DNA of 64,000 bases, from positions 50,778,001 through 50,842,000 of the forward strand of contig NC_042997.1 of NCBI RefSeq assembly GCF_006345805.1, written 5' to 3'. The stretch's first letter is position 1, and each line of letters starts with the position of its first letter. The notes below the pieces were generated by a model. That model saw only the letters and a program-made list of their open reading frames with translations. It was not told the origin of the DNA and did not search any database. Made by a program: the position numbers and the translations under genes. The DNA is from Octopus sinensis (taxonomy: Eukaryota). Shown here piece by piece: positions 37,498-58,157 of the stretch.

Positions 37498-38092
37498 GAT
37501 AGATAGAGACTGACAGACAGTCATACATAAATACATACATATATATATATACATTCATATATAAGCACACATGCATCATACTTGTATATATTTATATATA
37601 AACATACATATACATGCATATATGTGTATATGTATATATGTGTGTGTGTGTATACGCACAAGCGCACGCACATACAGACACACACACACACACATACAGA
37701 CACACACACACATACAGACACACACACACACACGCATTCATGCATTATGTTCTTTAGAAATATATTTCAATATACACTGAAAAAGTGTGTTCAGTATTGG
37801 CCCATCTAAGTTGCTTAGACTGTATTACATGCCGATTGTGTATATATACACAAGACACACATGCAGTACACATATCAAAATGTAGATACTTTATCTCCTT
37901 GTATCATGTGATCTCGGGTTTCGTACAAGCCAACACTCGTTAGCGAAACTTTGGCAATGTAGATGGTAAGCAAGTCTATTGTTTTTGGTTGGAAGGCTCT
38001 ATGTCACATAATTACCGTGCAGTCAGATTAAAATTCCCCACCTAGAGAAAGACTATTAACAATAGAATTCAGTGACCGATAATTTTTTTTTA

Positions 38093-38237
38093 TACTCTAG
38101 GCACAAGGCCCGAAATTTGGGGGAGGGGGCCAGTCGATTATATCGACAGCCGTATGCAAGTGGTACTTAATTTATCGACCCCGAAAGGAGGAAAGGCAAA
38201 GTCGGCCTCGGCAGAATTTGAACACAGAGCGTAAGAC
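38093..38237 (-). mobile_element. SINE family S2 (tail type a), partial
   Basis: Similarity to 20798-20950. Confidence 0.85.
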
Positions 38238-38249
38238 ATGTGTATGCAA

Positions 38250-38397
38250 ATGAGGGGTGCTGAAAAATTTGTGGCTTTGGGTAAAAGAAAGTACAGGAGG
38301 ATCAGTTAATTATGATTTTATTCAACATATTCTCGTCACAGATTCACACACTTATTGAGGCAGTCCTTCAGTTTTTCTAACCCCTGTAAAAGAACGG
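38250..38397 (-). mobile_element. Mariner-type end fragment
   Basis: gaggggtgctgaaaa TIR-like start; matches 27146-27523 in reverse. Confidence 0.65.
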
Positions 38398-38439
38398 ATA
38401 GATAGGTAGATAGATAGATAGATAGATAGATAGAGATAT

Positions 38440-38500
38440 ATATTTCTTTACTACCCACAAGGGGCTAAACACAGAGGGGACAAAGAAGGACAGACAAAGC
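38440..38500 (-). mobile_element. Isolated S2 type-b / Tx1-like 3' tail inside (GATA)n
   Basis: Near-identical to the reverse complement of 28391-28450. Confidence 0.85.
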
Positions 38501-38511
38501 GATAGATAGAG

Positions 38512-38568
<57 letters not shown>

Positions 38569-38879
38569 TGTTTCTTTATTAGCCACACAGGGATGCACAC
38601 AGATAGAACAAATTACAAGGTAGAGCTTTTCTTTTGGGGGTAAAAAAAGGGGGGGTTCGATCAAAAGGGATCGTAAAAGGAAAGAAAGAGGACAAAAAAA
38701 GGGGGGTTAAAAAAAGGAGGGGGGAATTGTCAATATGAAGTGTAAAGGGGAGGACAGGTGAGGTTTACCCGTGGAAAGAAAAGCCTACGGAAAAGACCAC
38801 GGTAACCTCGGTCAATGAAGTCACATGTTATATTTCTTTTTTTTTTGCAAATAAGCAACTCTGTATTAATTTTTACGGT

Positions 38880-41800
38880 TCATAGAATCATAGTCAAGGT
38901 GGCTTCGTCATTCATACGTGCCATCCTTGTTACATTCACCCATCTTTTTTTAAAACATTCACTAGACAAAACTTGCCTCTCTACTCTCACTTTCCTCTTC
39001 AAGTGATACTTGAAGAAGTTGATGAGAGATTGACCAGAGAGGAAAGTGTTTGTCTCCTTTCAGGCGCGTCCACCAGATACATTCTTTCGCTTATCCCGAA
39101 CGGGTAGCGCTTCTCGGTAGCACCACCAGGCCAGGGATCTCTGGAAGTTATCCATAGGTCCCGGGCCGAAAGTCGTTTGAAACAGGCGGGTCAGGTATTC
39201 CTCGTCGACGCCCAGGTTTGCCCCAAGATCGTCGTCGTACTTCCCCTCCACTAATCCCCTATAGAATGCTTTGGTTGTGTTGAAGTCACTCAAGGTCGAC
39301 CAGGGACGGCAAAGTTGCTTGAGAGCAACGCGACACTCGCGGTGCCATTCGCCCTTCCTCGGCCTCTTTTTGATCCACGACTGCAGTTCGGTCATGGAGA
39401 CGAGCTGCGGGAAAGCGTGCCTCACAAACGGCGACCACACCTGTTCACTGTCGTCTACATAGAGCCAGAGATGTCGCAGTCTCAGCGCGTGTCTGCGCAT
39501 CATCAACCACGGCATGCCCAGCCCTCCTTTTAACGGGTGTTGACAGCAAATGGATCGCCTGACCATCGGCACACATCCTTTCCACAAGAAGCGGAAGAGA
39601 ATGCGTTCTAGTTTGGTGATGGTAGGGTCGGGACAAGGTATGACGGTCAGGCGGTAGTAGATGATGGACGCGATGTACGCGTTCGCCACCTCCGCCCAAC
39701 CATTTAGGGACAGTTTCCTCTCGGCCCATTGCTGGGCGAGAGTGACCACCCTACTCGTTATCTCGTTCCAGTTCTTCTCCATTTGGAGGTCCGGACCGAA
39801 CCAGACCCCGAGCAACTTAACCGGGCCGTCTGTCCAGCGTCCCACGACGGAGGTACTGGTGGACGGCATGGGCTTGCTTCTCCAGGTGCCGACCCGCAAG
39901 CCCACTGACTTTTCCCGGTTGATTTTTGCTCCTGTCACCGCTTCGTAGTCTTTCAGTGTCTCACCGACCCGCTCGATGTGCTCGTGGCTTGACACTATGA
40001 CGGTGACGTCGTCCGCGTATGCAGACACGTTCGTCCCGCATCCCAATTCTCGCGGAATGCCCCTGAGAGTCGCCAGCTTCCGCAGTAGTGGCTCAAGAGT
40101 CAATACGTATAGAAGCGCCGAGAGGGGGCATCCCTGACGGACCGAACGTGCGATGTTGAAAGGTCTCGATAGATGTCCATTTACGCGAATTACCGAACGG
40201 ATGCCTCTGTACAAGGCAGCTATCCAGCCGCGGAAGACGGGACCGAAACCAGCCGCTCTCAGGACTGCCTCCAAGTATCGATGGTCTACCCTATCGAAGG
40301 CTTTCGATTGATCCAAGTTGATCAGGGCCCCACCCATGCCAGGTTCGTTAACTACCCTGTCTATGATGTAGCGCATCAGATGGAGGTTGTCATGGATGCT
40401 CCGGCCCGGCACAGCACACGTTTGTGCGTTGTCGACCAGTTTCTCGATGACAAGCGCCAACCTCTTGGTTAACACCTTTGTCAAAATGTTCAGGTCTGCA
40501 TTGAGCAGAGTAATTGGTCTAAAGTTATCTATAATGTTCCCCTTGTTTGGATCTTTCTTCAGCAGAGTTACAGCTCCTCGACTCACAAAACCGGGTATGC
40601 TCCCGTTTTGCTGCCAGTTGCAGTATACCGCTGCCAAGACGTCTCCAAACAAGTCTGGCATACAATTGTAAAACTCGTAGAGCAGACCATCCAAACCCGG
40701 CGATTTGTCTCTCGAGCATTCTGCCATCAGGTCCCGCACATCCACCGCCGTGATGGCACCTTCGCAGCACTCTGCCTCTCTTGCCGAGAGTCGTGGTAGG
40801 CTGTGCAGGTAGGCACTGAAGTCCACCCTGCGTTCACGCTCACCACTCGTCCCGTACAGTCGGGCAAAGTGCCGCTGAAATGTCTCGCACATCTTGCTGG
40901 GCTCGAGTAATTCGCGCCCCTGTTCATCTACCAGAGACCGAATGGTGGCTTTGTTGCCCTGCTGCGCCTCCGCCACCCGGGCCTCCCTCGCGGCTCCAAC
41001 AACTTCCATCCTTAGAGCACGCATCCTAGCCCTGACAGCACACCCTTCGTGTTTGGCGTTGAAGTGTTGTTCAAGGGCCAACCTCGCCGCTTAAACGTCG
41101 GATGTGATGCCACTTCTTATTGCCTCTTCTAACTTCTTAACTAACTCACCCTCTACTCTGTTTCTATCTACGGCTAGTGCCTTGCTATATCTAATTGCTT
41201 CCGCTTTTACTGCTCTCTTGAGGGCGAACCACCATTTGTTGTTGACAATGGCTCCCGTTAAAGCCCTCTTTACTAACGTGTTGATTCTGTCTCTGAAAAC
41301 TTGTCTGGACGGGAATGATGCGTTCAGTTTCCAGTACCCAGGACCCTGTCTATGTGCCTTATCTAAGTCTAGCGTACACGTCACGAATTTGTGATCCGTG
41401 TAGCTGACTGTATGGAATTGTGGACATCCTAAGTTATCCTTGTCTACTGTCCTACACAGTATCCTATCTAGATACGATCTCGACGACCCACTGCGGTTGC
41501 TCCATGTCCACGTTGGTGCATTTGGGTGGTCGAGTCGGTACCTGTCAGACAGTTGGAATCGTCTGAGCAGGTCTCTGAGGCATTTGCATCCCCTTCTGTT
41601 TTTGTCTCTCCCCACATAGTCTAGATGTGTGTCCAAGGTAGCATTCCAATCCCCCACTAAAAGTAAAGGACGAGACGTTCCCAGGAATACTTCTAGACGT
41701 CGAAATAAATCCGGCCGACCTGTTAAAGGCGGTGCGTAGACTGATACGAGTCGAAAAGCGCACCCATTGCTGCCGTCGACATCCAGAACGATCAGTCTAC

Positions 41801-42070
41801 TCTTCGGGTCTACGAATATCGTCTTGACTTCGAGATCCAGGCTCTTGTGAAAAAGTACCGCGGTGCCACTACCGCCCATCCTCGGCAGACAGGGAGCAAA
41901 ATAAATGTTAAACTGTCCGCCAACATGGACTTTAGGGCCCGTGGCTCGTGGAGTCTGGTCTCACTTATGGCTATGATTCCCAAATCATGTGACTTGATGT
42001 CATTTAGGAGGTATCCTTGTTTCCAAGGAGTCCCCAAGCCACGCGCATTCACACAACCAATCTTGACCAT
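38880..42070 (-). pseudogene. Copy B ORF2: APE endonuclease + reverse transcriptase
   Basis: NARGL, ISET, GDWN, YLDR, TDHK, KSPGLDG, FRPITLLN, DQSKAFDRV, VRQGCPLS, YADD; frameshift ~41890, stop at 41091, zinc-finger region apparently deleted after LPVRDK (~39090). Confidence 0.93.
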
Positions 42071-42120
42071 GATTCTATTGAGGTGTGTGCTTTAAAACAC
42101 AAAAAGGAAAGTACAGAGAG

Positions 42121-43833
42121 TTACTTACTTGTGTCGAAAGTTTTGGCTTCCTCGTTCTTTGATGTGTCTTCGAGGAGGTTTTTATAAAGTTTTTGGGAGA
42201 GATATTTTTGGAAACCCCCTACAGCATTTGGGAAGAGGGCTTTGAGTTTGTGGTGTTGTGTTTGTGTGATGTGTAGTATTTTGATGTGTTTGGGTGGTGT
42301 AGTGCGTGGATGATTGCTATTTTTAAAGTCATCTTCACAAATGTTTGTGTGGCCTGTGATGTACTCCATTAGTTTGGAGTCTTTGGTGTCTATCGCTGAT
42401 AGCATTGTTTTTGTGGTGTTGGTGCTTGTTTTGTTGTGTATGGAGTTTTCAGGGTTCAGGTATCTCCCTGCTTTGGTTGCGATTTCTTGTTTGTTTTTTT
42501 TTATCTTTTTCTTTTACCCCCTGTGGCTATTTGCCATTCTGTCGAACTTTCATCGTTAGATGAAAAGTCTGACGAATCAGCAGGGGGAAAGGGTAAAGCG
42601 TCTGGGTCTGTTTGTGCGGTTGTAGATATTGTTGTGGTGCGCGGGGAGGGTGTTGTTGGGGGGTTTGTTGTGGTTATTGTCTCTCCTACATCCTTGGTGC
42701 TTGTCTTCTTCGTTGTTATTCTCGGTGTTGGAATTGGTTTAGTTGTTGTTGGTGGTGATGATTCTGTTCTTGGCGCTGGTGTTGGTGTTGTTTGGTTGGG
42801 TTGGCTTGTTCTTTGTTGTTTTTCATGCATTTCTGCATACAGCTTCTTGATTAGCCGTCCATATTGTGGTGTGGGCAATAATTCTGGCTTTTGTGGTTTT
42901 TCCTGTGGCTGTTGTTGTTGTTGTAATTTAGCGGCAGATTTGCACTCCTTTTTGAGGTGTGCCTCACTGCCACATGTATAGCATCGTGGCCCTCTGCCCT
43001 CGACTACTACGTACAACTTGCGGCCATCCGCAAGATGTACGTGGGTGGGAATTTTGTTAATGTCGTCTTGACTTATGTGGAAGAGGAACTCCATTCTCTT
43101 TCCCAGCCAGTCCTTGTTTTTCGAAACAGCGACATCCAGGATGTTTAAGTCCTCCATTTCGGATGTTATGGCGGATGTTATCCATAGTGTGGTTGTTACT
43201 TGGGGGACATTATTGATAATGACCTTCGTCACCTTCTGGCCAAGGTAACTCGCTGTCATCGTTAGTTCATCAGAATGAAGGGTTATCGTTGAGAATTTCT
43301 TCGCCAACTCTTCATTCTGAAAAACCACCTGTACGTGGGCGAACTTGTTCGCCCAAGTCACATAATCCTTGTATCCCCAGATGGGGCGTAGGCACTTTTC
43401 TATTTTGTCCGTGCTTGCCTTTTCTGGACTTTTAGTTGTTTTATTTGTTATTTTATAAACAATGGTTTTCTTTTTTTCCTCATTCAGTATGTGTTGTGGT
43501 ATGTGTAAGAGTATTTTGCCATTTTCATTGGTGATAAGGTTTCTGCAATATTTTATTTGTTGTGCAGTAAACGATACTCTTGTTACTTTTTCTTTTATCG
43601 CCTCGGCGAAGTTTGTTGTTGTTTTGTTATTGTTGTTACTGCCGGTGGTGTTGGTGTTGATGGCAGGGGTGTGGGTTGTAGGTTTGTGGTTGCTGATTAT
43701 GCAACTAGCAAGGGGTGGAAAATTGTCTGCGTAATTTGGTCCTGCATTAGCGCAAATTTCGGCATTTCGTTTGCTTGTCGTCGTTGTTATTTTTTCACTT
43801 GTTGGTGATGGAGTGAGCAGTGGTTGAAGGGAA

Positions 43834-43877
<44 letters not shown>

Positions 43878-44359
43878 ATTGTCGTTCTTGGTGACGGCGG
43901 TGGTGTTAGTGGTATTAGTAGCATTGACGGCACGGTCTTTGGTGGCGGTGATGGTGATGTTGGTATTGTTATTGGTGGCGATGTCTTTAGCAGGGATAGC
44001 AGTTTTAGTAGCAGATGCTGCCATGGTGTTGTTGTCGGTGTTGGTGATGGACTCACTGGTGGTGTTGACGGTGCATGGCCTTGCGACCTTTGTTTTGTAT
44101 TTGTTGCTGTTGTCAATGTTGATGGTGGTGGTGGTGGTGGTGGTGGTGGTGGTAACAGTAGTAGTCTCTTTGTTGTTCTTGTTAGTGGTGGTGGTGGTGA
44201 CAGGGCTGTTACTACAAGTGGTTGCAGCGTTTATTCCTAAATTATTTATGTTTGCACTTTGCGTGCATAAGTTCTTTTTTTCTCCTAGCGTTTCCAGACT
44301 AGGAAAATGATGGTCGATAGAGGAACGGGACCATCGTTCTACAATACAATTTCTCGACA
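42121..44359 (-). pseudogene. Copy B ORF1 (T/N-rich N-terminus, CCHC zinc knuckle)
   Basis: CYTCGSEAHLKKEC; C-terminal part 42121-42405 out of frame after an A-run near 42500. Confidence 0.88.
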
Positions 44360-44660
44360 TTTTGAAAATGTCGAAAAGGAAATTACACAAATTAAATAGG
44401 GTTGAAACTGCCCCTAGAGGCGAATTCCTCCCCTCCACTAATCCTCTATAGAATGCCTTTGTTGTGATGGAGTCGCACAAGTTCGATCCCGGACGGCAGA
44501 GTTGCTTGAGAGCAACGCGACACTCGCGGTGCCATTCGCCTAGCCTCGGTCTCTGCTTGATCCATGACTGTAGTTCGTCCAAGGAGACGAGCTGCGGGAA
44601 AGCGCGCCGCACAAAAGGCGACCACACCTGTTCACCGTTGTCTATGAAGCGCCGGAGATG

Positions 44661-47249
44661 TCACAGTCTCAGCGCATGTCTGCGCATCATTAACCACGGC
44701 ATGCCCAGCCCTCCATTTAGCGGGTGTTGACAGCAAATGGATCGCCTAACCATCGGAACGTTTCCCTTCCACAAGAAGCGGAAGAGTATACGTTCCAGTT
44801 TGGTGATGGTAGGGTCGGGACAAGGCACGACAGTCAGACGATACTCGATGACGGATGCGATGTACGCGTTCGCCACCTCCGCCGACCTTTTAGGGATAGC
44901 TTTCTCTTTCTGGGTGAGAGTAGCCACCCTAGTCGTTATCTCGCCCCAGTTCTTCTCCATTTGGAGGTCCGGACCGAACCAGACCCCGAGCAATTTAACC
45001 GGTCCGTCCGTCCAGCGTCCCACGATGGAGACGCTGTTGGACGGCATGGGCCTGCTTCTCCAGGTGCCGAGCCGCAAGCCCACTGACTTTACCCGGTTAA
45101 TTTTTGCTCCCGTTACCGCTTCGTATTCTTTTAGTGTCTCGCCGACCAGCTCGATGTGCTCGTAGCTCGACACTATGACGGTGACGTCATCCGCGTATGC
45201 AGACACGCTCCTCCCGCATCCCAGCTCTCGTTGGATGCCCCTCAGCGTCGCCAGTTTCCGCAGTAGTGGCTCAAGAGTCAATACATACAGCAGCGCCGAG
45301 AGGGAGCATCCCTGACGAACCGAACGCATGATGTTAAAAGGTCTGGATAGATGACCATTTACGCGAACTACTGAGCGGATGCCGCTGTATAAGGCAGCGA
45401 TCCAACCGCGGAAAACTGGACCGAAACCAGCCGCTTTAAGGACAGCCTCCAAGTAGTGATGGTCTACCCTATCGAAGGCTTTTGATTGGTCCAAATTGAT
45501 CAGCGCCCCACCCATGCCAGGATTCTTAACTACCCTGTCTATGATGTAGCGCATCAGATGGAGGTTGTCATGAATACTTCTACCCGGCACGGCGCATGTT
45601 TGTGCCTTGTCGATTAGTTTCTTGATGACAAGCGCCAACCTCTCGGCTAGCACATTGGCCAAAATTTTCAAATCTGCGTTGAGCAGAGTGATGGGCCTGA
45701 AATTATCTATAACGTCCCCCTTTTTTGGGTCTTTCTTAATCAGTGCCACTGCTCCTCGCTTTACAAAAGCAGGAATACTCCCGTTTTGCTGCCAGTTGCA
45801 GTAGACAGCTGCCAAGACGCCTCCAAACAAGTCTGGCATATGAAAATAAAGTTCGTAGGGCAGACCATCCAAGCCTGGTGACTTGTCTCTCGCGCAGCCT
45901 ACCATCGCATCCTGTACGTCCGCAGCTGTGATAGGCCTTTCACAAGACTCCACCTCTCTTGCTGAGAGTCGTGGCAAGGCATGCAGGTAGGCACTAAAGT
46001 CCACTCTGCGTTCTGACCCACCACTTGTCCCAAACAGTTGGGTGAAGTGTTGTTGAAAAGCCCCACACATACTTTTAGGCTCGAGCAATTCGCACCTCTG
46101 TTCATCTATAAGAGACTTGATGGTGGTTCTGTTGCCTCGTTGCGTCTCCACCACTCGGGCCTCTTGGGCGGCTCCAACTCCTTCGTTCCTCAGAGCACGC
46201 ATCCTAGCTCTGACAACGCATCCCTCGTGTTTGGCGTTGAGGTGTTGGTCGAGGGCCAATCTCGCCGCCAGGACGTTGGACGCGATGCCAGTTCTAAGTG
46301 CCTCTTCTAAAACCTTAACTAATTCTCCCTCTATTCTATTTCGGTCTAATGCTAGGGCTTTACTGTATCTGACTGATTCTGCTTTAATTGCTTTTTTTAG
46401 GGCATACCACCATCTGTTGTTGATGATGGTACCCGTCAAAGCTCTCTTAACTAATGTGCTGATCCGGTCCCTGTAAACCTGTCGTGCTGTAAAAGACGCG
46501 TTCAGTTTCCAGTAACCAGGACCCTGCCTATGTGTCTTATCTAAGTCAAGTGTACAAGTCACAAACTTGTGATCTGTGTAACTGACTATATGAAATTGTG
46601 GACAACCTACACTATTTTTATCTATTGTCCTACAGAATACTCTATCTAAGTATGATCTGGACGACCCGATGCGGTTACTCCATGTCCACATTGGCACATT
46701 CGGGTGGTCCAGTCGGTACCTGTCAGACAGTTGGAAACGTCTGAGCAGGTCTTTGAGGCATTTGCATCCCCTTCTATTGCTATCTCTGCCCACGTAGTCT
46801 AGATGCGTGTCCAGGGTGGCATTCCAATCCCCCACTAAAAGTAAAGGACGAGACGTTCCCATGAAAGACTCTAGACGTCGAAAGAAATCTGGTCGGCATG
46901 TTAAGGACGGAGCATAAACTGCTATCAGTCGAAAAGCACACTCATTGCTGCCATCGACATCCAAAACGACCAGCCTACCCTCCGGGTCTAGGAAATTTGC
47001 TCTTACTTTGAGATCCAGACTCTTCCGGAGAAGCACCGCGTTGCCACCTCCGCCCATTCTCGGTAGACACGGAGAAAAATAAATGTTGAAATGTGTACCG
47101 AAACTGTGCTGGAGTGCCCGCAAGCTGTGGAGTCTGGTCTCACTGATGGCTATGATATTCAGATTTAGTGATTTGATGTCATTTAACAGGTAGCCTTGTT
47201 TCCAAGGCGATCCCAAGCCACGTACATTTATACTGCCTATTCTGAGCAT
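44661..47249 (-). CDS. Copy A ORF2: APE endonuclease + reverse transcriptase, 862 aa, truncated
   Basis: EN and RT motifs in one frame; short compensating frameshift near 44890-44915; TGA where copy B has CGA. Confidence 0.92.
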   Translation of the reverse strand: MLRIGSINVRGLGSPWKQGYLLNDIKSLNLNIIAISETRLHSLRALQHSFGTHFNIYFSPCLPRMGGGGNAVLLRKSLDLKVRANFLDPEGRLVVLDVDGSNECAFRLIAVYAPSLTCRPDFFRRLESFMGTSRPLLLVGDWNATLDTHLDYVGRDSNRRGCKCLKDLLRRFQLSDRYRLDHPNVPMWTWSNRIGSSRSYLDRVFCRTIDKNSVGCPQFHIVSYTDHKFVTCTLDLDKTHRQGPGYWKLNASFTARQVYRDRISTLVKRALTGTIINNRWWYALKKAIKAESVRYSKALALDRNRIEGELVKVLEEALRTGIASNVLAARLALDQHLNAKHEGCVVRARMRALRNEGVGAAQEARVVETQRGNRTTIKSLIDEQRCELLEPKSMCGAFQQHFTQLFGTSGGSERRVDFSAYLHALPRLSAREVESCERPITAADVQDAMVGCARDKSPGLDGLPYELYFHMPDLFGGVLAAVYCNWQQNGSIPAFVKRGAVALIKKDPKKGDVIDNFRPITLLNADLKILANVLAERLALVIKKLIDKAQTCAVPGRSIHDNLHLMRYIIDRVVKNPGMGGALINLDQSKAFDRVDHHYLEAVLKAAGFGPVFRGWIAALYSGIRSVVRVNGHLSRPFNIMRSVRQGCSLSALLYVLTLEPLLRKLATLRGIQRELGCGRSVSAYADDVTVIVSSYEHIELVGETLKEYEAVTGAKINRVKSVGLRLGTWRSRPMPSNSVSIVGRWTDGPVKLLGVWFGPDLQMEKNWGEITTRVATLTQKEKAIPKRSAEVANAYIASVIEYRLTVVPCPDPTITKLERILFRFLWKGNVPMVRRSICCQHPLNGGLGMPWLMMRRHALRL

Positions 47250-47315
47250 GTTCCGATAAAATTATGTTTTACACACGAAAAGAAAGTGCAAAAAAGGAAA
47301 GAGAGAGAGAAAAGG

Positions 47316-49533
47316 TTACTTGTTGTTCGAAAGTCCTTTGTTTTTCACCTCACAGTCTTCTTCCATGAGGCTTTTGTATAGTTTCTTTGATGAGTACTTT
47401 TGAAATCTCTCTACAGCATCAAGGTAAAGAGATTTCAGGGTGCTGTATGTGTTCTGTGTTACGTGTATTATTTTAATGTGTTGTGGTGGTGTTGTGCGTG
47501 GGTGGTTACTGGTTTTTATGTCGTTTTCAGTTATGTTGGTGTTTGACCTAATGTGTTCCATTAGGTCGTGGTTGTTTGTGTTTATGGCTGTCAACATTGT
47601 TGGGGGGCTTGATGATGGTGTGTTTGTGTTGATGTGTTTGTTTTCTGTGGATGTTTTTGTTTCGGGAGTGGTGAATCTTCCTGCTTTGTTTGTTATCTTT
47701 TCTTTTCTTTTTTTCCCCTTTTCTTCTCCCCCCTGTGGCTATTTGCCAATCTTCTGTGTCTTCTTCGTCTAATGACAAATCAGAAGAATCAGAGCTTGGA
47801 AGAGGGAAAATATTGGGGTCTATTGTAGACTGTGTTGATTTTGTTGTTGTTGTTGGTTGGTGAGCGTTAGGTTGTGGTGTATGCGGTTTTGGAGGTGGGG
47901 TGTGGGTATTTTGTGTTTGAGTGATTGTAGGTATTGTTGTGTTGTTTGGGGTGTCAATTTTGTGGGGATTTAGAGTAGTAATTGTTTCTTCACTTTCGAT
48001 GAGTGTCTTTTTGGCAGATGTCCTTGGTTTGGGAGTTGGTTTATTCTTGGTTGTTGTTGTTGGTGGTGTTGCTTCTGTTCTTTGTGCATTTGGTGTGGTT
48101 GTTTGGTTGGTGAGGTTTGTTTTTTGTTGATTTTCTGTGATTAGTCCTGTTCGTGCAAAACGTGGTGTGGGTAGAAAAGCTGGTTTATTTGTTTTTTCCG
48201 GCTGCTGTTGTTGTTGCTGTTGTTTTCTTGCGACAGATTTGCAGTCTTTTTTTAGGTGTTGCTCACTGCCGCATATGTAGCAACGTGGTCTTCTGCCATC
48301 GACGACCACATACAACTTGTGGTTTTCTGATACACATATCTGGGTGGGTATTTTCTTTATGTCCTCTTGGTTTATATGTAGTAGAAATTCTACTTTTTTT
48401 CCCACCCAGTTTTTGTGCTCCGTGACCGTGGTTTCTAAAATTGTGAAATCTTTCATTTTCACACATAAGGCCTTTACTAGCCAGAGATTGTTATCTATTT
48501 TTGGGACATTGTTTAAAGTGATCTTAGTCACTTTCTGTCCACAATAGCTTGGTGTTAGTTGAAGTTCATCTGAATGAAGAGTTAGCGTTGAGAAACGTCT
48601 TGCTAACTCTTCAGTGTGGAAGACCACTTGTATGTGTGCGAACTTGTTCCACCAGGTCACATAGTCTTTGTAGTTCCAGATGGGTTTCAAGCATTTTTCT
48701 ATTTTGCTTGTGTTAGCCTTCTCTGGACTTTTTGTTTTCTTATTAATTATTTTATAAATAATTGTTCTTTTTTTTTTCATCTTATAATATTTCTTCTGGT
48801 ATGTTTATTTTTACTATACCATCTACTTCCGTTATTGTAATGTTCGTGTCTTTTATTTGTTGTGCAGTAAAATATACTGTTGTCTTTTTTTCTTTAATCG
48901 CCTCGGCGAAATTAGTTGTTGTTTTGTTATTGTTGTTACTGGTGGTGATGTTGTTGTTGGCTGCAGTTGGTAAAATCGGTGTATTTGGTTTGATTGTGCA
49001 AGTAGGAAGGGGTGGAAAATTACTTGCATAATTTATCTCTGTATTCGAGCAGCTTTTGTCAATTTGTTTGGTGGTCACAGTCTTTTGTTTATTCCCTTCA
49101 GTTCTTGTTGTTGGAGTAAAACAGGTCTGAACGGAATTGTTGTTGTTGTTATTGTTGTTTTTGTTGTTAGTGATGGTGTCAGTGGCAGAAGAGACAGCCG
49201 TGGCAGCAGATGTCGAAATGGTGGCGCAATTTTTATTTTTGTTGTCATTGTTATTGTTGTTGTTGTTGGTAGTTGAGGTAGTGGAGGAGGTGGCGGTGGT
49301 GGTGGTGGTGGTGGAGGCGGTGGTGGTAACAGTAGTAGTCTCTATGTTGTTCTTGCTAGTGGTGGTGTTGGTGACAGGGCTGTTACTACAAGTGGTTGCA
49401 GCGTTCATTGCAAAGTCATTGATGATTTTACTTTGCGCGCATAAATTCGTTTTTTCTCCTAGCGTCTCCAGACTAGGAGAAAGCTGGTCGATAAAGGAAC
49501 GCGACCAGCGTTCTACAATACAATTTCTCGACA
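47316..49533 (-). pseudogene. Copy A ORF1, broken by two homopolymer frameshifts
   Basis: ORFs 48782-49618, 47548-48780 and 47316-47597 align in order to copy B ORF1; CYICGSEQHLKKDC. Confidence 0.88.
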
Positions 49534-49739
49534 TTTTGAAAATGTCGAGAAAGAAATTACAAAAATGAAATAGGGTTGAAACTGCCCCTAGGGGCGAATT
49601 CCTCCCTTGGAAAAGCACTCAAACGAAAGTTGGGTGCCTTACACACCTTATTTACAAAAATGTACACAAAATATGGGCTATAAATAGTCAAAATAAACGA
49701 TTACCTTCGGAGCCGAAGTGACAGCACGTCCATAGACAG

Positions 49740-49860
<121 letters not shown>

Positions 49861-50834
49861 TTGTACATGACATTGCGTGAATCAAGAAGTACTGAAATAA
49901 ATTTAAATATTGAAAGGTTTTGTGTGTGTGTGTATGTATGTGTGTACACAAATGTGTGTGAGGCTTTAGCCGCCATAATTAAAATGGACTAAACAGCATA
50001 GGTGTGTATTCTCTTGTGGTTTTATTGTACCATGTATATACTTGTATCTACTTAGATATATAGAATGCATGTTTGTTTGTTTGTTTGTGTATACATATGA
50101 TGCACATATATATATAACGTCTGTACGTATAAATATATATCTATGTGTCTGCGTTTGCGTATGTGTCTATGTGTAAATATGTATTTTGGTGATATGAATA
50201 TATGTATGCACATAGATGAGGACTTGTATATATGTGTATATATATGTAACTGAGTGCGTGAGTATGTGTATGTTGTGTGCTTATATGTGTGTGTTATATG
50301 GATATGCGTATGTGCTTGTATGAGTGTGTGTGTGGAACTACACATAAATAAACAAACAAACCCAAATATCAAGAATTCCTTGAAATTTGAATCATTTCCA
50401 AAGCCATGCCTCGTGACAGACTGACTTCTTCAGGCTGACTCTTCCAGCAACCTTTTCTTTGTAACTCACTCTTCCTGCTCTAAATCACCGGTTTCTCTTG
50501 TTAACCCATAATATATTGAAATACTATCCCCCCACTCCTTTTTATATTGACTCCCTACACACATGCACATACCTATATACCTACACAGACACACACATAT
50601 ACACATACACACACATATACACACATGCACACTCACACACATAACTAAACCTTTTGAAACATAAGTAGATCTCATTTTTGCTAGCTATGTTCATTGGAGC
50701 ATCATGGAATAAAGAAACTTGCCCAACGGAATCGAACTCAGGACCTTACGATCGTGAACTGAGCACTAAACCGTGTGCCTTCATATACATACATACACAC
50801 ACACACACATACATGCACACACATATAGACACAT

Positions 50835-50914
<80 letters not shown>

Positions 50915-50919
<5 letters not shown>

Positions 50920-51847
50920 CATAAAAATACATACAGAACTCCACAGTGACAACAGACATATTTTACAAAAAAACTGACACACACCAATATTTAAAGTTCT
51001 ACTCTTGCCATCCATCACACATCAAAAGAAACATCCCATACAGCATGGCAAGATGCATCTGTGCTATAGTGGCTGATCCCAAAATACGTGAAATCTTACT
51101 CAACGAACTCAAAGGCTTCCTCACGATGCAGAAATACCCCTTAGAATTAATTAATGAGGGAGCTAAAAAGGCGATGAAACTGAACATCACCCAACTACGG
51201 GCATCTAAGGAAAAAGTTAATGAAAACACGAGTCCGTTCATTAACAGACACAGTCCTGGAATAACCAACATCTTTCACGCCATAAAATCAAACTTACCTA
51301 TACTCCTACAAAGCCCCAAAATGAAAACTTTGATTGAAAAGACCACCTTACGGAATAGCAGACGCTAACCAAAAACGCTTAAAAACGCTTAAAATTCACA
51401 AGGGTAGAATTCAAATCAGAGAATGAATCAGAATTCTTAGAAAACGAATGGGGAGATAAGAGATGTGGAACATGCAACAATATCAACAACTTCAAATACT
51501 TGAAAAGTGGTTCCCACATAAAATTCAAGAGCGGATCCCTTTTCAAAATTAATGCAGTTATGAACTGCAAAACGCAAAACCTCATGTACTGCATTACCTG
51601 CCCAAACTGCAAAGGAAATTACATTGGCGAAGCAAATAATTCCCTCTGCCAACGTGCAAGAATCCACAGGCAACATATCCGACAAGAAGAATTACGCAAG
51701 ATTCCATTAAGTAAGCATCTGGAAATATGCGGCGACGGAAAATTCAAAATTTTTCCCTTTTGCAAATATGCACGGGACGATCTGCAATATCAAAAAGTAA
51801 TGGAACTACATTTCATCAAAAAATTCTCTCCAAAATTGAAGGTTTGA
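50915..51847 (+). pseudogene. 5'-truncated Penelope-like element (RT thumb + GIY-YIG, Neptune/Naiad type)
   Basis: TDIFYKKTDTHQYLKFYSCHP, RCGTC linker, NLMYCITCPNCKGNYIGE..RARIH..SKHL..E..FI; starts directly after (TA)n; stop and frameshift ~51370. Confidence 0.92.

Positions 51848-57394: not shown

Positions 57395-58157
<763 letters not shown>

Follow-up and report, generated by a model that had tools for sequence, protein, structure and literature searches.

The leader of an L1/Tx1-type LINE in octopus, together with the first 27 codons of its ORF1, forms a module that is exchanged between ORF1 lineages. Judging from sequence, we read this module, with a probability of roughly 0.6, as a likely internal promoter for Pol II that contains DNA palindromes; downstream of it lie an AUG under a predicted stem and a conserved N-terminal peptide. 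An earlier note had described the region as a four-hairpin structured RNA with strand-specific compensatory changes. Although the stems are real, a four-hairpin RNA with compensatory changes is not supported. The window analyzed is a stretch of 64,000 nucleotides from Octopus sinensis (contig NC_042997.1), and all positions given below refer to it.

Anatomy of the two LINE copies

Two copies of the element, A and B, lie in tandem on the minus strand, and both are broken (Table 1). Copy B is without its first ~133 nt. A 4-nt microhomology joins its leader and ORF1 in frame to ORF2 of copy A, giving a 719-codon open frame. In both copies ORF2 encodes an APE-type endonuclease (PF03372) followed by a reverse transcriptase (PF00078), as identified using Pfam. 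Among solved structures, the best PDB match to ORF2 is human L1 ORF2p (residues 1-847, E 4.7e-52). Among named sequences, the ORF2 homolog closest to it comes from Argonauta hians; other nearest homologs are unnamed or annotated as "hypothetical". ORF1 is separate from and upstream of ORF2 (619 aa in copy B) and has a zinc knuckle in both copies. In copy B this domain falls just below the Pfam cut-off, and its CCHC residues are invariant in the ORF1 alignment. A word-based search for homologs of the ORF1 core returned none at E 1e-5. With an endonuclease-RT ORF2 and a separate ORF1 bearing a nucleic acid-binding motif, the element is a non-LTR retrotransposon of the L1 group. We refer to it as L1/Tx1-type; a Tx1 affiliation is suggested by the occurrence of more than 20% of flanks in one repeat type.

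At least three TATC units lie directly upstream in 119/146 genome copies, equivalent to 119 of the 126 in which the 5' motif was located. The genome copies start at the (TATC)n junction and share a 5' boundary. Copy A begins at 49739 beside its array, 135 nt upstream of the stems, so the stems do not mark the 5' end of the LINE.

The 3' UTR of copy B (38569-38860, minus strand) contains pyrimidine runs, with AATAAA 8 bases before the TATC repeat and without poly(A). The same 3' end precedes the arrays of several other copies, suggesting that elements stack in tandem. An unrelated repeat that looks SINE-like is also present in the window (57399-57861), as two units of 248 nt in tandem.

Table 1. 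Features of the two LINE copies and of the leader region, in window coordinates.
Feature	Position	Strand	Remarks
(TATC)n target array directly 5' of copy A	49740..49860	-	repeat adjoining the element start
Copy A, L1/Tx1-type LINE	44433..49739	-	5' end intact, ORF1 broken; ORF2 (endonuclease + RT) ends at copy B junction
5' UTR of copy A, leader type F1	49535..49739	-	~205 nt; 5' boundary common to genome copies; likely internal promoter (inferred role)
Splice-donor-like motif	49699..49704	-	GTAATC in copy A; F2 and F3 have GTAAGT; median distance to the repeat 32-37 nt in every leader type
H0 inverted repeat	49615..49637	-	overlooked in the earlier note; in F1, twice in F3, not in F2; fixed C.A mismatch in F1
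H1	49578..49602	-	perfect palindrome of 12 bp in the DNA (core 49584-49595) plus flanks; no other feature is as well conserved, and this extends to the loop
H2, stem over ORF1 start codon	49524..49552	-	ATG 49534-49532
ORF1 codons 1-22	49469..49534	-	conserved peptide MSRN.I.E..S.......(F)PxL; copy A has degenerate SPSL at 49469-49480
H3, lineage-limited stem	49483..49509	-	codons 9-17; overlaps alternative stem 49497-49513
H4, lineage-limited stem	49453..49482	-	codons 18-27; 5' arm encodes (F/S)PSL
Second FPPL motif of copy A	49007..49018	-	low-complexity N-terminal arm of ORF1p
Microhomology, 4 nt	44429..44432	-	links copy A ORF2 to copy B leader
Copy B LINE	38569..44432	-	5'-truncated, 3'-complete; ORF2 interrupted
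Start codon and motifs of copy B		-	ATG 44360-44358; FPSL 44295-44306; FPPL 43710-43721
(TATC)n array directly after copy B 3' end	38501..38568	-	3' end bears AATAAA, without poly(A)

Leader types and module exchange

The copies collected are samples rather than a census, as the DNA and protein searches scored the best 40 or 150 candidates only. After removal of duplicates and start-less loci, 146 copies were kept: 52 F1ab (the window type), 24 F1c, 43 F2 and 27 F3. Their leaders are of three types, F1, F2 and F3. In F2, a distinct leader and N-terminus are joined to a B-type ORF1 body. This family (L141-L170) is very young, with leaders 97-100% identical and 719 first-look candidates. The F3 leader contains the unit of H0, H1 and ATG twice, the two being 67-78% identical. 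In F3 leaders (L093, L096, L097, L112-L138) a short upstream ORF closes the first monomer, ~170-200 nt before the ORF1 ATG; it comprises 7 codons plus a stop in 15/20 copies where it was found (e.g., MSPKRSS and stop). Tandem arrays of partial ORF1 segments of the same LINE family were identified at G000:C19:42593733-42600545 (L122, L129, L130) and C27:6333437-6342435.

The region had been thought more conserved than the downstream ORF1. This is correct as an observation: copies A and B are identical in 270/299 columns over the first 300, compared to ~60-76% in most of ORF1 and 75-92% in ORF2. The cause, however, is that the 5' module has been swapped. Between lineages with ORF1 cores 39-63% identical (core compared to copy B), the F1 leaders are 86-96% identical, and the F1 leader needs 4 changes on an ORF1 tree of 118 rows (F1c left out; deep F3 branches, possibly misregistered, left uninterpreted). 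The F2 column, an artefact of the alignment, was left out of the identity comparison for the first 22 codons. These values, together with the F2 leader on a B-type body, indicate that the 5' module is exchanged between ORF1 lineages. The 5' UTRs of L1 elements are likewise exchanged (PMC5381506, in part).

Hairpins, folding and covariation

All four stems were confirmed on the minus strand, with the ATG of MSRNC inside stem 2, and the stem differences between copies A and B are as described previously. The alternative GAACG/CGUUC stem and the UGGUC/GACCA pairing are present in both. The stem region corresponds to the 3' half of the 5' UTR and ORF1 codons 1-27, and it folds better than shuffled sequence (z -6.5 in copy A, -3.5 in copy B; 0/200 shuffles as good). 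Because 8 of the 44 120-nt windows along copy A reach z <= -3.5, the folding score is not peculiar to the leader region. Minus-strand windows of 120 nt at 48419, 47819, 47579, 45059 and 39200 have folding z values of -4.4 to -5.8; several of these are sense-biased, including the ORF1/ORF2 spacer region.

In the H3/H4 region no other of the 76 F1 copies is as stable as copy A (-29.0 kcal/mol; medians -20.4 and -15), and its extra stability is owed to rare variants. All 300 of its synonymous recodings fold less well; for other F1 copies, between 5 and 88 of the 300 recodings do as well, and several of these copies fall in the best 2-7%. In representatives of the leader types, z <= -2 is reached by this region in 8/8 F1, 0/5 F2 and 3/13 F3. 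All 8 pairs of H3 occur in 11/52 F1ab and 2/24 F1c copies and in none of F2 or F3. Pairs are lost in both H3 and H4 in F1c, where FPSL is kept in 22/24. Thus a four-stem cis-regulatory RNA is not kept across the family, as H3 and H4 decay in F1c and are absent from the other leader types. Conservation of the coding half follows the peptide.

The double change reported as compensatory, at 49508/49484, involves the third positions of codons 9 and 17. The two positions can pair in 14/50 F1ab copies with letters at both; the states in the 52 copies are A.G 29, A-U 10, C.A 5, C-G 3, A.C 2, U-G 1 and gap 2. Three changes from C-G to U-G had also been noted. Those in stems 2 and 4 are lineage-level (19/52 and 14/52), a point in favor of the earlier note, but the one in the palindrome (49592/49587) occurs in 1/52 and is private to copy B. 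Pair-breaking changes are equally widespread: codon 2 is TCG, TCA or TCT by lineage (synonymous Ser codons), leaving the middle pair of H2 (49547/49529) as C-G in only 23/52 F1ab and 9/24 F1c. With four 5'-truncated copies left out, shared variants were found at 6/46 paired and 5/35 unpaired sites in codons 1-27, and at 4/51 paired and 17/137 unpaired sites in the UTR.

RNAalifold applied to 34 chosen F1 and F3 representatives kept 8 pairs, all in H1, with a covariation term of -0.04. In the same alignment, two-sided changes were found in 13 pairs, compared to 10.0 in shuffled alignments (36/500), with zero such pairs in H0 and H1. The percentage paired and the covariation score lie above all 500 shuffles, which take no account of relatedness between copies. 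In 7/8 F1 and 5/5 F2 representatives the antisense strand folds at least as stably as the sense strand, and the sense strand folds better in 11/13 F3 representatives; within F1, the family of the window, the sense strand has no advantage. No convincing covariation appears in the larger alignments. Together with the lack of a sense advantage in F1 and a coding half whose conservation follows the peptide, this is largely the outcome that the earlier note had named as counting against its proposal.

The Rfam scan that had been suggested returned no known ribozyme or cis-element family from window positions 38000-51000 (21 weak matches) or from 8 loci (34 matches). All matches were below the gathering score and we discarded them as repeat-driven miRNA/snoRNA noise. 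Self-cleavage or 5' processing, also proposed, is hard to reconcile with a position 135-285 nt into the element, since the copies begin at the repeat junction. R2, RTE and L1Tc elements carry 5' self-cleaving HDV-like ribozymes. The octopus leader resembles these in that a non-LTR element has RNA structure close to its 5' end, but it is off the 5' boundary, lacks an Rfam match and its stems are not conserved.

The 5' UTR and the ORF1 start

H1 has the form GCCC-N4/5-GGGC (GCCC-N5-GGGC in F2), and all 10 of its pairs are kept in 44/52 F1ab and 22/24 F1c copies. It is near-invariant in non-coding DNA across leaders with an identity of only 71-75%, and the two F3 monomers both keep it. From 112 to 39 nt upstream of the ATG, conservation is no different in stems, loops and linkers, as expected for primary-sequence sites. 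In F2 the spacer of H1 is 5 nt long and the palindrome is extended by a long perfect stretch; an RNA hairpin would explain this better than a site for a dimeric factor, which counts against the promoter reading. H0 is limited to F1 and F3, and mismatches in it are tolerated.

At the repeat junction of F3 (L114, L116-L118) we identified TATCGATA, and GGACG/AGACG units occur in the first 15 nt of F1 and F2; we take both to resemble insect core-promoter motifs. Upstream motifs may be DPE-, DRE-, E2F-, AP-2- or EBF-like, labels that carry no weight as evidence. No recurring spliced copies from the donor-like motif were found, and two predicted junctions had 0 matches in the genome. One leader (L012, G000:C6:59401233) has a 67-nt deletion with GT/AG ends that starts from the donor-like motif. 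We do not take it for a spliced copy, as the junction occurs once in the genome and there is short microhomology at both ends. Contigs of 4 + 4 sequencing runs contained no splice joint, although contigs would hardly reveal one, and had one replaced segment (X14). In human L1, a 5' UTR donor site is kept because it lies within a RUNX3 site (PMC5860796, in part), and the rodent L1 promoter consists of tandem monomers (PMC5381506, in part).

The MSRN ATG is supported as the real ORF1 start by peptide homology. A stem over this codon, defined as at least 5 expected pairs across the AUG, was found in 116/122 copies from three families, and in F2 it is rebuilt from different arms and sequence. Among the remaining 46-nt windows of these elements, 3-41% are no less stably folded than the one at the AUG. 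On the basis of the folding model, the stem may damp ORF1 translation.

The ORF1 N-terminal peptide and the FPxL motif

The N-terminal FPxL motif is present in 19/27 F3, 22/24 F1c, 11/52 F1ab and 0/43 F2 copies. The first motif is SPxL in the copy A lineage. A second FPxL motif was found in 44/52 F1ab, 41/43 F2 and 10/27 F3. In F3 and F1c the F, P and L are kept, x is free and synonymous codons vary. From 150 matches listed for distant ORF1 relatives, 28 with an N-terminal extension were chosen; FPxL occurs in 4 of the 22 that have at least 30 residues, compared to 0.28 expected. FPxL binds RACK1 in ZAK and SERBP1, and as a RACK1-interacting motif it also occurs in LARP4 and RNF10 (PMC12823453 and bioRxiv 10.64898/2026.08.26.747346, both in part). 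The ORF1p motif is similar in its location in a low-complexity arm and in having F, P and L fixed and x free. It differs in that the carrier is a retrotransposon ORF1p with putative binding, and in that the first motif is degenerate in the A lineage and absent in F2. By analogy, the motif might grip the ribosome via RACK1 (blades 2-3), and a motif of four residues may serve another partner. The host RACK1 gene was identified from an exon (L183, G000:C21:24617337) over which the full protein (P0077) is identical. An alignment-free complex prediction of this protein with the 36-residue ORF1p N-terminus of copy B gave no verdict either way (score 0.00).

Alternative explanations

If the module is a promoter and start region, the 5' UTR (49535-49739) would act as an internal Pol II promoter, in which H0, H1 and the donor-like motif would be read as DNA by transcription factors. 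The AUG stem would lower ORF1 initiation somewhat. H3, H4 and the perfection of stem 2 would be incidental, arising from codon choice and from template switching at inverted repeats. Besides the F2 form of H1, several results count against this reading: the AUG stem rebuilt in F2, the better folding of the sense strand in F3, the pairing and covariation scores above all shuffles, and the standing of copy A and several other F1 copies relative to their synonymous recodings. Somewhat unlikely, in our judgment, is a reduced cis-acting RNA, in which H1 and the AUG stem (not H3 and H4) fold in the transcript, set ORF1 translation or RNP loading and are the main reason for conservation. The near-ubiquity of the AUG stem, with other arms in F2, the lineage-level G-U states in H0, the H1 flanks and H2, the H1 spacer of 4 or 5 nt and the favored sense strand in F3 are consistent with it. 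However, the middle pair of H2 is broken in three lineages without repair, 3-41% of other 46-nt windows fold as well, F2 is the one independent sequence replacement, and neither F1 nor F2 has a strand advantage. The tentative idea of an exchangeable 5' translation module, in which the stem gates the ORF1 AUG and one or two FPxL motifs dock new ORF1p on the RACK1 of the ribosome that made it, is unlikely to be correct.

Template switching bears on the view that these are neutral inverted repeats, made and re-perfected during reverse transcription or replication and conserved by the peptide and recent descent only. In one leader (L026) stem 2 has gained 13 perfect pairs, for which the 5' arm was the template, and the H0 loop of another (L114) is inverted. 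Both carry the signature of a described template-switch mutation type (PMC3820800, in part), indicating that perfect stems can arise without selection. The equally unusual folding of 8/44 copy A windows and the rare variants behind the stability of copy A point in the same direction. Purely neutral repeats are nevertheless improbable given the near-invariance of H1 in non-coding DNA of otherwise diverged leaders and in both F3 monomers, and a donor-like motif whose spacing from the repeat is preserved in each of the three leader types. More improbable again is the full model of the earlier note, four hairpins in which GAACG/CGUUC and UGGUC/GACCA form a pseudoknot or switch; such an RNA might serve as a -1 frameshift signal or cleave itself. 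Geometrically the pseudoknot is plausible. Sites 49508 and 49484, which vary, are unpaired in it, and both of its stems are intact in 38/52 F1ab copies. Its second stem is intact in only 10/24 F1c, neither stem occurs in the 27 F3 copies, and it has no two-sided change. A slippery-type heptamer lies 6 nt upstream in 22/24 F1c copies but is absent from all 52 F1ab copies. The far position from the element end and the lack of an Rfam ribozyme or cis-element match also argue against the full model. From the proposal of an uncharacterised cis-acting RNA, what stands is the real start ATG, which three leader families place within or beside a stem, together with the strongly conserved H1; the four-stem structure, covariation and processing do not. 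Based on the conserved GCCC/GGGC palindrome and the stem at the AUG, a smaller cis-acting element (DNA or RNA) is likely.

Relation to known elements and significance

Tx1 families that target microsatellites include Kibi and Koshi of fish and crocodilian (TTCC)n/(TTTC)n families, defined with a criterion of more than 20% of flanks (PMC4494074, in part). The octopus LINE is similar in combining an APE endonuclease and RT with a simple repeat, and its flanks are far above 20%. Its (TATC)n target and cephalopod-like host differ. With mammalian L1 it shares an ORF2 whose best match among solved structures is the human L1 protein, repeated exchange of the 5' end, tandem monomers and a conserved donor-like site (PMC5381506 and PMC5860796, both in part). 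It differs in its short AT-rich leader, in an exchanged unit that includes the first ORF1 codons, and in an ORF1p with a zinc knuckle and a Thr/Asn-rich arm. Recent L1-Tx1 insertions have been counted in Octopus vulgaris (PMC13282606, in part). Our search of literature listings, outside Repbase, Dfam and subscription journals, returned no report of a TATC/GATA-targeting Tx1, a structured Tx1 leader or a link between ORF1p and RACK1.

For RNA structure prediction the locus is a cautionary case, in which covariation mimicked by two dead copies was removed by 76 copies. The element itself is still useful: the LINE family is young and abundant, targets (TATC)n, carries leaders of three exchangeable types and conserves FPxL in ORF1p, and its very young F2 family is the best material for expression work. 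If the translation module were real, cis preference would have a physical basis, or ORF1p could compete with factors of ribosome quality control. Should FPxL bind RACK1, the long-standing question of how LINE proteins remain with the mRNA that encodes them would gain a mechanism open to direct testing.
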